The translations under genes were made by a program, and so were the position numbers. The notes beneath the pieces are model-generated. The model saw only the letters and a program-made list of their open reading frames with translations, was not told where the DNA came from and searched no databases. A stretch of DNA of 64,000 nt from an uncultured bacterium (GTDB taxonomy: Bacteria; Zixibacteria; MSB-5A5; UBA10806): positions 224,001 through 288,000 of the forward strand of contig CBEUCH010000001.1 of the NCBI GenBank assembly GCA_965541585.1, given 5' to 3'. Positions 35,319-41,851 of the stretch are shown here, in pieces (within the stretch, counting starts at the first letter, position 1; each line of letters begins with the position of its first letter).

Positions 35319-35558
35319 TTGGTTACCCAGCGGCGCTTGGTAACCAGAAGGATGGATGCCGCATCGAGTGCGGCATGACAGAGAGAGAGCTTTCGTCATT
35401 CCCGTGTAAACGGGAATCCAGAGGGGGGAGGGTGTGTTCTGGTCCTACGGATCCGTAGGAATTCCCAATCAAGTCCTACGGATCTGTAGGATTGGGAATG
35501 ACAATGGGATGTCAATGCGTATGCTATCAGGAGAGGATTCCTGACGGCGCGGAATTTT
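35319..35558. repeat. Composite palindromic repeat, copy A (GTCATTCCC...GGGAAT family), carrying two nested 18-mers
   Basis: Successive hairpins; segments homologous to 36608-36743, 37960-37987 and 41701-41851. Confidence 0.85.
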
Positions 35559-36443
35559 CTATTGAGTTGTATCTGAGACTATGTTTGAAACGTTTGAAAA
35601 GTAGCCTTCATTTGAAATCGTCGTCATACCAAACCAATAGGTCGTAGAATCCTGGAGGTTTTCCACGGTCATCGTGTCACGCGATCCGGGAGCCGAAGGA
35701 GTGGGTTCGCCGACTGCAGTGTCAGCAACGGTCCAATCGCTCCAGTCGCCTGATTGCCATTCATGGTCGAGATACCGAAGATCGTATTCCACAGGGTATA
35801 AATTCTGGTTGCCGGGGACCGTCCAGGCCAGAGTTACCGAGCTACTATCTGTTTCGACAACTTCGAGATCATCCACAGGAGGCGTAGGATAAATGGGTGG
35901 AGTCTTATTATGTACGAGAATGCCATTGGCTATAAAATTATTAAACGGTGAACCGACAGTTATATCGAAAACCCTGATCTCTTCTGAATCGATTTTTGAA
36001 ATCGTTGCAATAGCTGTTTTTAATTTATTTTGCTCAACAATATAGACTTTCGATAAACCATCGAACTGCCACGATGATGCTTTTTTATATGTCATTGTCT
36101 CTGGGGAATATACAGGATGGTCAGCAGAAACTTTGAGCGTATGACCTGAATCGGATCGGAACTGGATACATTTTCCGAAGCCCTGTTTTATACCGGTGAT
36201 CCTTGCCGGTGACAGGACGTTTTGACCAAAATCGTAGGACATGACATAATCACCGACCTTCAGCGATTTTACAGGCACGTAGCCTTCCGGAGTCAGAATG
36301 GTAGTGTCACCGGAAACACATGCAATTGTAGGCCCGATATCGCAGCTTATAAGCAAAATTGCAAAAGACAGCGTGAGACAATTTACGAAAAGATGATACC
36401 TCCTTGCGATCTGTTTGCCGGGATTGTTTAACTTTATCATCAT
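35559..36443 (-). CDS. Lipoprotein with Hint (bacterial intein-like) domain and C-terminal fibronectin type III domain
   Basis: Lipobox LIS-C34; Hint from C42 (CVSGDT.I.TPEG...LKVGD) through SADHPV to VFDITV...NFIANGILVHN179, followed by K180; FN3 SVTLAWTVPG...YDLRY...L...TTYWF. Confidence 0.85.
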   Translation of the reverse strand: MMIKLNNPGKQIARRYHLFVNCLTLSFAILLISCDIGPTIACVSGDTTILTPEGYVPVKSLKVGDYVMSYDFGQNVLSPARITGIKQGFGKCIQFRSDSGHTLKVSADHPVYSPETMTYKKASSWQFDGLSKVYIVEQNKLKTAIATISKIDSEEIRVFDITVGSPFNNFIANGILVHNKTPPIYPTPPVDDLEVVETDSSSVTLAWTVPGNQNLYPVEYDLRYLDHEWQSGDWSDWTVADTAVGEPTPSAPGSRDTMTVENLQDSTTYWFGMTTISNEGYFSNVSNIVSDTTQ

Positions 36444-36607: not shown

Positions 36608-36743
36608 GTCATTCCTGCGGAAGCGGGAAGTTAGGGAACCATAGGCTGGTCACCATTCTGGATTCCCAATCAAGTTGGGAATGACAATGGCTTATCTATT
36701 CGCATGCTATCAGGAAGAGATTCCTGACAGCTCGCGAAGGTTC
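36608..36743. repeat. Composite palindromic repeat, copy B (no nested inserts)
   Basis: GTCATTCCTGCGGAAGCGGGAA...CTGGATTCCCAATCAAGTTGGGAATGACAATGG...ATGCTATCAGGAAGAGATTCCTGAC. Confidence 0.85.
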
Positions 36744-37820
36744 TTATCCCTTCGTATTAATATAGAAGTTGTTCTGGAAATCGTGAGATAGTCTTTTGAC
36801 CTCTACCTTGCTGAAGCCGGCATCATTGAGCATCTCGCGAGCTTTTTCCTCCCCCCACATTGCGCCCAGTCCTGCTCCGCCTTGGGCCAGCGAAACAGAC
36901 ATGCAATGCATGCAGGATATCGTGTAAAGAAACGGGCCTATAGGATGATCGACGTTTTTATGGACATGACTGGAACCAGCTATATCCTGCATCAAAAAAG
37001 TACCGTTGGGCCGAAGAACACCTGCAATTCCCGATAGAACCTTCCCGGGACGCGCTTGATCGTGGATGGCATCAAAAGCTGTTATCAAATCGAAATTCTG
37101 GCCGTCAAGGTCGAAGGATGTCAAATCCTTCGACTCGAACCTGACGTTCGTAAGAGATTCTTTCGACGCGTCCGACCGCCCCATGGCAATTGCCTCCTCC
37201 GAGAGATCATACCCCATAAAACGACTATCGGGATATGTTTTCGCAAGCAGATTTAACGCCCGGCCGGCTCCGCATCCGACGTCCAGCACGTCGATACCGC
37301 GCTTAAGATTGCCGATAAGCCCGGGGACCAGGGGGAGGATATGCTCGATCAGAGCGGCAACCACGGTCTGACCGCTATCCTCGGCCATCACCTCGTGGAA
37401 TCGGCCGTATTCGGAGTAGGGGACACCGCCGCCATTTTCGAAGCAGTCGATGATTCTATCCTCGACCGTACCCAATAACGGGATATATTGAGCGAAAACG
37501 GCAATATTATCCGGGGCGGATTCGCGAGTAAGGAATGCTGCATGCTCTGCCGGCAGCGAGTATTTCGAGGATTCGGCATCGTAATCGACAATCCCCCCGG
37601 TAACCATAGCGCCCAGCCATTCCCTGACATATCGTTCATTCAGTTTGCCATGTTGAGCTATCTGTTGACTTGTGCTCGGCGGCAGTATGCTCATCGTATC
37701 ATAGAGGCCGGTACGATGGCCGATAGATACCATCAGGGAAAGAGCCCCCTTGTTCAGCATATCGATCAAGCCCTCGGCGAATGCCTCGGCTTTGGCGGTA
37801 TCAATCTGTGAACCTGACAT
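36744..37820 (-). CDS. Class I SAM-dependent methyltransferase with N-terminal winged helix (Rv2258c-like)
   Basis: SIGHRTGLYD, LNERYVREWL, LDVGCGAG, FDAIHD, YTISCMHCM...GLGAMWG; ATG 37820 after GGAGG. Confidence 0.88.
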   Translation of the reverse strand: MSGSQIDTAKAEAFAEGLIDMLNKGALSLMVSIGHRTGLYDTMSILPPSTSQQIAQHGKLNERYVREWLGAMVTGGIVDYDAESSKYSLPAEHAAFLTRESAPDNIAVFAQYIPLLGTVEDRIIDCFENGGGVPYSEYGRFHEVMAEDSGQTVVAALIEHILPLVPGLIGNLKRGIDVLDVGCGAGRALNLLAKTYPDSRFMGYDLSEEAIAMGRSDASKESLTNVRFESKDLTSFDLDGQNFDLITAFDAIHDQARPGKVLSGIAGVLRPNGTFLMQDIAGSSHVHKNVDHPIGPFLYTISCMHCMSVSLAQGGAGLGAMWGEEKAREMLNDAGFSKVEVKRLSHDFQNNFYINTKG

Positions 37821-37959
37821 ATTATTTTCCTCCTCTGCATGAAAGGCAGTGCCTGTCATACCGATTTTGCAATCAACGATTAAATGGATCGCTATTATCC
37901 ACAAACGAAAATATGTTTTCGGGCTTATTCTGTCAATCGGTTTTGTTGAGCGGAAAGTC

Positions 37960-38118
37960 CTGGATTCCCAATCAAGTTGGGAATGACAGAGGGGGGCGTA
38001 AGTGTCATTGCGAGGAGGCCGAAGGTCATACGACTCGTATGAGCCGACGAAGCAATCTCTACTTGAATCATGGTTTGAGATCGCTTCGCCCCGATCTTCG
38101 ATCGGGACTCGCGATGAC
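37960..38118. repeat. Composite palindromic repeat, copy C, plus a GTCATTGCGAG...GCAATCTC / GAGATCGCTTCG...CGCGATGAC element
   Basis: Exact CTGGATTCCCAATCAAGTTGGGAATGAC followed by a second inverted-repeat family with internal hairpins. Confidence 0.8.
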
Positions 38119-41612: not shown

Positions 41613-41851
41613 TGGATGCAGCATCACGCCCGGCATGACAGGGAGATGGCACCCTGTGGATGCAGCATCACGCCCGGCATGACAGGGAGATGGCACCCTG
41701 TGGATTCCGCATCAAGTGCGGAATGACAAGGGCGAAAAGGTTGTCATTCCCGCGTAATCGAAGATCCCCGAAGGGCAAGCGGGAATCCAGAGGGGGAGCC
41801 GTATTCTGGTCCTACGGATCCGAAGGAATTCCCAATCAAGCTGGGAATGAC
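41613..41851. repeat. Composite palindromic repeat, copy D, preceded by a perfect 2x44-bp tandem duplication
   Basis: 41613-41656 is identical to 41657-41700; 41701-41851 is homologous to 35353-35502. Confidence 0.88.

Follow-up and report, generated by a model that had tools for sequence, protein, structure and literature searches.

The repeats SDR1-8 of Nostoc, described by Elhai et al. in 2008 (Genome Res 18:1484), are reportedly 21-27 nt long. Since the work on SDRs and REPs it has been an open question by what route repeats of less than 30 bases multiply in the genomes of bacteria. The repeats reported here resemble several described systems. With the SDRs of Nostoc, which are cited in PMC4390886, they share the very short structured sequence, the occurrence of filled as well as empty sites, insertion with exact edges, compensatory base changes and the lack of a known enzyme, and SDR5 is reported to insert precisely inside the HIP1 palindrome. 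Like the REPINs depicted in sections of PMC3116915 and PMC8266576, which are thought to move via single-stranded DNA, they are non-autonomous, intergenic doublets of two inverted hairpins. Insertion 3′ of the target without duplication recalls the IS200/IS605 elements, which have hairpins at both ends (summarised in a section of PMC8266576). Small single-domain GIY-YIG genes flanked by their own hairpins, as portrayed for the Ssn/NTS system in part of PMC11893778, are a further likeness. So are the double-hairpin elements of fungal mitochondria (Paquin et al. 2000), which as cited in PMC10085805 are two adjacent hairpins, potentially mobile and located in intergenic regions and structural RNA genes.

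We analyzed a stretch of 64,000 nucleotides of a Zixibacteria genome, in the following called the window, together with the remaining genome and its relatives. An 18-mer inserted into REPs of the window belongs to a family of non-coding units of 16-24 bases, all of which consist of two abutting mini-hairpins.

Filled and empty repeats in the window

The original prediction had placed an 18-bp perfect palindrome into REP hairpins at 35439 and 41806 and had named empty 28-mers at 36658 and 37960. These positions were confirmed exactly, and as claimed, removal of the inserts restores the empty repeat without duplication and every insert lies 3′ of a G. The palindrome is perfect, however, in only one of the three inserts of the window and not in the other two, and the host at 41806 equals the empty site apart from one base that differs from the empty 28-mer. 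A search of the window for the 18-mer gave three matches (with 0, 1 and 1 mismatches), compared with 0.02 expected from shuffles.

The host at 35439..35502 (minus strand) is a doubly filled REP of the CGTC/NTS type, and this doubly filled form recurs at two other places in the genome. Its first insert is the exact 18-mer at 35443..35460 (type A, see below; no strand assigned), built of two 9-nt mini-hairpins with a TAC loop and then a GTA loop; its insertion point is a G|A step within the tail of the CGTC-type REP. The second insert, a one-mismatch variant of type A at 35474..35491 (no strand assigned), interrupts a G|T step where the REP loop ends. Both inserts are missing from the orthologous site of genome G002. 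Two neighboring CGTC-type REPs are empty in the window. For the one at 35394..35421 (plus strand) the matching REP of G002 and of locus L259 carries a decayed nested A[B] unit, and for the one at 35352..35379 (minus strand) a related contig (run X6, record 19) has a 19-nt type A unit behind 35364. Both the REP at 35394 and the host at 35439 correspond to the dRS3/NTS type as presented in parts of PMC3733652 and PMC11893778. Next to this group, 35559-36443 (minus strand) encodes a protein of 294 aa that combines a hydrophobic stretch at its N-terminus with an intein-like Hint domain and an FN3 domain; this gene is missing between kbl and the epimerase gene in G002.

The empty host REP at 36658..36685 (minus strand) has an identical empty counterpart at 37960..37987 (minus strand). 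In locus L260 the REP matching 36658 is filled at the tail site and the site matching 38026 is empty. In the window this latter site harbors a type B unit (38026..38043, 18 nt, no strand assigned) with ATAC and GTAT loops and one base common to both halves, inserted at G|G of a GTCATTGCGAG-type REP. Between the two identical 28-bp REPs (36658-37987) lies a gene for a 386-aa Rv2258c-like methyltransferase (36744-37904, minus strand). Since in the L260 ortholog the first REP joins the sequence past the second, the methyltransferase gene looks like a REP-bounded indel.

The third match to the 18-mer is a type A unit at 41810..41827 (no strand assigned, one mismatch) in which GAA replaces GTA. It occupies the same tail site as the insert at 35443, here in a singly filled host REP (41806..41851, minus strand). 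A 21-nt insert which we call type F, with two GAA mini-hairpins in the same orientation, is situated in the loop of a CGTC REP at 41755..41775 (plus strand). Three exact copies and one decayed copy of type F are found in REPs of the genome, after G in the REP loops and with empty hosts present (further positions: G000 C7:131822, C11:84418 and C4:122092). This insert and the type B unit at 38026-38043 had been missed by the original prediction. The region 41613-41700 consists of two identical 44-nt tandem copies, each with a degenerate CGTC REP. We also noted a GTAG-type REP with several other short GAA/GCA mini-hairpin inserts (G000 C1:92449, C27:21180, C12:15978 and C1:311989).

A family of double mini-hairpin units

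By iterative excision we counted 84 units in the genome, 51 of type A, 30 of type B and 3 of type C; 69 of the 84 are outermost and 15 are nested in other units. Type A reads T-CC-loop-GG-A and then again T-CC-loop-GG-A (18-20 nt). It was accepted with up to two mismatches, or three when intergenic, so that a few units may be chance matches, and some decayed hosts were missed. Type B reads G-YC-loop-GR-C-YC-loop-GR-G (16-18 nt), one G being that of the target, and type C comprises 24 nt, with CG common to unit and target. The bases common to unit and target hence number 0 in type A, 1 in type B and 2 in type C. Nesting occurs as B in the center of A, as A in a B loop and as C in A, with up to three layers, and no tandem or circle-junction forms of type A were found in the genome. 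When the genome was scanned for pairs of abutting hairpins, the first with a (A)TAC and the second with a GTA(T) loop, 40 sites were returned, and none with the halves in reversed order; when 48 triloops were ranked, TAC came out on top with 14, the runner-up having 7.

The 18-mer itself has 27 matches in the genome at up to two mismatches, of which only five are intact exact copies. This lends no support to the perfect palindrome as the working form, and what covariation maintains is two short hairpins. We compared 88 type B units from this genome and from fetched loci, the latter pre-selected for Y and R at the positions in question, which still permits mismatches. The variable stem pair is Watson-Crick within the halves in 86/88 (first half) and 85/88 (second half) units, with switching between C-G and T-A. 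When the same positions are paired across one long hairpin, 52/88 are Watson-Crick and 28 are C-A mismatches. Loop length varies independently between the two halves, and a type A variant has a compensated T-A pair in one half. As judged from these sequences, the conserved fold is two abutting mini-hairpins and not a single palindrome, and the double-hairpin DNA is probably the working form. For the perfect 18-mer, energy folding favors the long hairpin.

C(GTA)G and C(GTAT)G predominate among the loops, and GCA, GAA and GTAC occur as variants. In DNA, a C:G closing pair makes GNA loops very stable according to a section of PMC3201870, and the title of one of its references names the cGNABg loop class. 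A reading of the units as RNA UNCG tetraloops was discarded because the stems do not pair that way. Closed on itself, each unit would be a dumbbell with all bases paired or looped and, calculated from the sequence, with 5, 6 or 8 bp.

On one strand a G is found 5′ of the insert in 48 of 51 type A units and at 35 of 38 distinct junctions, against a background of 0.47. Only position -1 is fixed in the type A targets; positions -2 and -3 are free, which rules out a fixed guide/target tetranucleotide. The target G of type A is followed by T (25), A (18) or C (5), and never by G (0). Type B is preceded by GG in 29 of 30 cases, where the pattern itself demanded one G on each side. Since either strand of asymmetric variants can face the G, the G belongs to the target. 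In metagenomes the G rule was kept at 100 of 124 sites among the matches listed, chance matches included. Inverted repeats of at least 7 bp are present at 49 of the 69 outer sites compared with 17.5% of 1500 random intergenic G sites. The hosts comprise several CGTC and GTAG REPs, a tRNA-Gly pseudo-copy, other units and, in a relative, the tmRNA. A replication-strand bias is absent, the G strand of type A being 19 times on the G-rich and 24 times on the C-rich strand as defined by local GC skew. With respect to genes this strand is sense in 8, antisense in 17 and convergent/divergent in 18 cases, a weak antisense lean among sites that are not independent.

For 14 of 45 type A junctions the genome also contains the exact empty 14-mer; the corresponding figures for the controls are 5 of 204 (shifted) and 19 of 400 (random). 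The REP upstream of the kbl-like gene is doubly filled in the window and in L259 and empty in G002. At the REP adjoining it, G002 and L259 both carry an insert and the window has none. In 45 further ortholog comparisons we obtained five exact and three near-exact filled/empty pairs and seven sites filled in both; the other 30 were left out because the host repeat was not alignable or the locus was not orthologous. Three of the orthologous filled/empty pairs are in the window. The comparison also covered 12 sequencing runs, each spanning 0.05-0.15 of the stretch and all as contigs; an excised or circular form of the units was not seen in them.

Two insertions with empty orthologs are in frame within genes. 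A MetE-like gene has the insert just before the stop codon in G000 and G002, and lacks it in G001, G003 and G004. In the Hsp20 of G239 a type A insert adds SYGSVG; it is lacking in three congeners and coincides with a six-residue gap against solved Hsp20s. The idea that an insert of this length preserves reading frames is borne out by these two genes, but not as a design feature, the lengths of 41 of the 84 units not being multiples of three. Hsp20 genes with a six-residue type A insert were seen at L518 (G239), L290, L298 and L326, that is at two paralogous loci in one genome and in metagenome relatives. At L216, L232 and L310 a type A sequence encodes, in frame, the residues SYGSVG near the N-terminus of secreted proteins of one family, within their signal region; these matches do not follow a G, and no empty ortholog of them was found. 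In G010 a type B unit (L165:1502) is located in the tmRNA gene, and the intact tag is still called.

Different B subtypes are present at one and the same site of A. Many copies are carried passively in filled REPs, and the 38 type A junctions represent by eye about a dozen unrelated host sites. We conclude that the units are very probably mobile elements; that all pairs are deletions from one ancestral filled repeat is unlikely given the Hsp20, MetE-like and tmRNA sites. The core of the original prediction, a minimal non-coding unit that inserts precisely after G without duplication, parasitizes other repeats and has polymorphic filled and empty alleles, is thereby upheld, and the 18-mer is not confined to the repeat family in which it had been noticed.

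Of 285 genomes of the phylum Zixibacteria, 17 have the A pattern (no control matches) and 12 have the B pattern (three control matches). Both patterns are confined to the families f1, f2, f3, f8, f11 and f19, with none in the 108 genomes of f9, and the spread across the phylum is patchy. Among 185,579 species the exact 18-mer occurs at 47 loci, the multi-copy ones being mostly Zixibacteria. An Actinomycetota-labelled genome (G286) has 13 B sites without any control match, with one A nested in B, and the GG rule of type B held at one of five sites examined there; a Planctomycetales-labelled genome has a single nested site at a contig end. Possibly both are cases of bin contamination. An Armatimonadetes-labelled genome was not counted since its four matches stood against eight control matches, and a Peribacteria-labelled genome gave no match. 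In viruses the 18-mer occurs at one locus; 17 viral loci matching the prefix of type B were taken as chance, the second hairpin being completed in none of them.

Candidate nuclease and possible routes of movement

The genome has eight small GIY-YIG genes, and units lie within 700 bp of three of them. Two of these three are Ssn-like and flanked by filled NTS-type REPs. Our candidate is an 81-aa GIY-YIG gene (G000 C5:213847-214089) that follows tRNA-Gly(TCC). It is flanked by pseudo-tRNAs in which the anticodon arm is replaced by TCC-GTAC-GGA, which is half of a type A unit. The closest homolog (G003, 68%) has the pseudo-tRNA hairpin TCC-TAC-GGA, and 11 homologs have ATCT, ATTT, AGAT or AATT loops instead. 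From these AT-type loops a sister element family was predicted and then found. It has ATTT/AAAT and ATCT/AGAT loops, the same build, host sites and nesting and mostly the same G-flanked target (L486-L504), and its pattern, searched in 70 genomes, matched 14 times in G259, 11 times in G251, 5 times in G257, 4 times in G006 and 3 times each in G248 and G253. Hybrid units join a TAC half to an AAAT half.

The tRNA-Gly cassette is readable in 16 genomes. In all seven that have at least three pattern matches, the elements agree with the cassette in loop type (Fisher p 0.03, kin not being independent), one of the seven, G253, having only one clear element plus one TAC-type unit; the other nine have fewer than three matches. 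At one C-terminal position all 11 AT-loop proteins have Asp, and none of the 8 (G)TAC-loop proteins does. The 81-aa candidate belongs to Pfam GIY-YIG, has UPF0213 proteins as its nearest solved structures and falls outside the Ssn-like group in the tree. The cassette is absent at the intact tRNA-Gly(TCC) of the element-rich genomes G002, G016 and G024, and no homolog of the nuclease was found in G001 and G016 at E 1e-12. G257 has a GTAC-loop cassette at tRNA-Ala, yet ATTT-loop elements, and the single nuclease cassette inspected in G259 has an unrelated hairpin. Rather than a binding site, the hairpin of the pseudo-tRNAs may be a half-element that has landed there. Small GIY-YIG genes at tRNA-Asp, tRNA-Asn, tmRNA, a tRNA-Ser-like copy and tRNA-Gly (G000 C6:95264, 95623, C6:210181, C14:53547, C23:38216 and C5:213874) are likewise flanked by pseudo-copies with the anticodon arm swapped for a gene-specific hairpin, some of them in tandem arrays. 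An 88%-identical stretch shared with G016 and lying near an element turned out to be coding sequence with no sign of a nuclease.

The related Ssn family binds hairpin repeats and cuts only single-stranded DNA, and the cut site of SsnA lies upstream of its repeat, as stated in a section of PMC11893778. We considered the Ssn cut site as the insertion site and rejected it since it does not match the insertion points in the host REPs.

GIY-YIG enzymes cut DNA by hydrolysis without joining, so that joining would need a host ligase. The sequences establish the units, their edges, the target G, the nesting, the filled and empty orthologs and the pairing within the halves. We tentatively propose that a folded single-stranded dumbbell is moved by small GIY-YIG nicking and the host ligase. 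The unit would fold in place into two stacked mini-hairpins, which would bring its ends together like in a four-way junction, and a small hairpin-reading GIY-YIG enzyme would nick one strand on both sides of the unit. The freed oligonucleotide, a dumbbell, would already have touching ends. In the reverse step another hairpin, nicked after a G, would receive the dumbbell, the host ligase would seal the ends, and replication would fix the insert. The 0, 1 or 2 bases common with the target in types A, B and C could represent the core of a branch-migrating junction. The dumbbell intermediate, the nicking, the ligation and the enzyme are all put forward with somewhat less than even confidence, and the same holds for the small GIY-YIG nuclease class as the mover. 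More doubtful is the wider proposal that the unit is a self-synapsing 16-18-base dumbbell, the smallest known mobile element, which borrows the tRNA-lodged 81-residue GIY-YIG enzyme and the host ligase without transposase chemistry, and that loop and enzyme co-evolve as lineage-specific pairs while the units pass between phyla and give proteins inserts of six residues.

The original prediction had instead called the unit consistent with HUH-type single-strand chemistry. A RAYT/TnpA-REP (HUH, Y1) enzyme would then excise the unit and insert it as a single-stranded circle. The precise insertion 3′ of a fixed base without duplication does resemble IS200/IS605, this chemistry both cuts and joins, and the genome has four RAYT-like genes flanked by REPs. 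In addition, the cut sites of TnpA-REP can be altered to GA and GT via a guide change, as described in a passage of PMC8266576. However, RAYTs occur in 25 of 25 relatives tested, element-bearing or not, no RAYT clade tracks the elements in a tree of 63 proteins (part of the matches), and none of the four RAYT genes has a unit within 700 bp, other REPs being found there. The replication-strand bias is absent, the first hairpin leaves no space on its 5′ side for a guide tetranucleotide, and the family lacks a conserved GTAG. The HUH proposal is thus unsupported and we regard it as unlikely.

The units could also spread without a dedicated enzyme, either copied by polymerase template switching or repair at stalled hairpins or captured as a stable oligonucleotide at a nick. 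Such a route would agree with the choice of any hairpin as target (several REP types, the tRNA-like T-arm, tmRNA, other elements) and with types B and C, which read s-hairpin-comp(s)-hairpin-s and so have the pattern of a double fold-back. Halves recombine, TAC/AAAT hybrids included, and the candidate nuclease can be missing in element-rich genomes. But type A has no base in common with its target and still has exact edges in 35 of the 38 junctions, the same unit can be found in different families and in a genome that bears the label of another phylum, and the distribution is patchy (0/108 genomes of f9) although REPs and replication proteins are general. We give the enzyme-free route a small chance.

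Folded attC and CTX-phage sites undergo a single strand exchange that is resolved by replication, and a host tyrosine recombinase or a similar enzyme might act in the same way on dumbbell and target. While the four-way-junction geometry, the core of 0-2 bases and G|T as the commonest junction would suit this exchange, two recombinase boxes need far more than the 5-8 bp of the units, and no target is conserved beyond the G; a recombinase is quite improbable. The view that the units have no independent mobility and are a few ancient insertions traveling as passengers of filled REPs is in line with the recurrence of the same filled REP within and between genomes and with orthologous sites that are filled and decayed in both relatives. 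It is contradicted by the roughly one dozen unrelated host sites, by the Hsp20, MetE-like and tmRNA insertions with empty orthologs and by B units of different subtypes that occupy one site of A; the non-REP sites go most of the way towards refuting it, and it has very little probability left. A spread via RNA by reverse transcription or reverse splicing, reportedly proposed for some cyanobacterial SDRs and compatible with tRNA-like copies and tmRNA among the sites, is hardly credible given no RVT_1 match in the 98%-complete genome, loops that obey DNA and not RNA stability rules, a G strand that is not sense-biased and no Rfam family at gathering score.

Comparison with known systems

If the link between the dumbbell and the nuclease is true, the recently described hairpin-reading GIY-YIG enzymes would be tied to DNA mobility and a chemistry for scarless short insertions would be suggested. 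The exact junctions, the nested layers, the natural loop variants and the 81-residue candidate make this proposal testable with short oligonucleotides and one protein. The units also represent a route by which six-codon inserts enter proteins, as in Hsp20 and at the C-terminus of the MetE-like protein.

We found no account of the double-hairpin unit family in the literature, though sequences of this kind may be contained in the supplements to the surveys of Ssn and of REPs. Unlike the SDRs, the main types have 16-20 nt and consist of two inverted mini-hairpins closing to a dumbbell, with a one-base G target. They are also heavily nested, occur in another phylum and have a candidate nuclease; it is by description that they are set apart from the SDRs. 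The fungal mitochondrial elements are organellar, longer and very GC-rich, and they too have no known enzyme. From Ssn the units differ in that the candidate partner is outside the Ssn-like group and at a tRNA gene, and Ssn is not known to be mobile. The CGTC-palindrome-C repeat (NTS) is a feature of the host REP and not of the insert, which sits in NTS-type repeats. MITEs are characterized by terminal inverted repeats in common with a full-length IS and by a target duplication, and such a duplication is not seen with type A.

Unlike IS200/IS605 with their tetra- or pentanucleotide target and guides, the units are without transposase, guides and strand bias and have a target of one base. Compared with REPINs they have zero spacer, 3-bp stems, G|N instead of C|T junctions and no adjoining RAYT, and REPs are their targets. 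The GTAG foot 5′ of the hairpin is absent; GTAG appears only as loop plus stem and is lost in the GTAT/GTAA variants. Covariation and exact indels identify the two inverted hairpins as the moving unit. In sum, the units behave like an SDR or a spacer-less REPIN, yet they fall outside the definitions of REP/RAYT and IS200/IS605 elements, and with 16-24 bases these double-hairpin units are likely to be among the smallest mobile DNAs.
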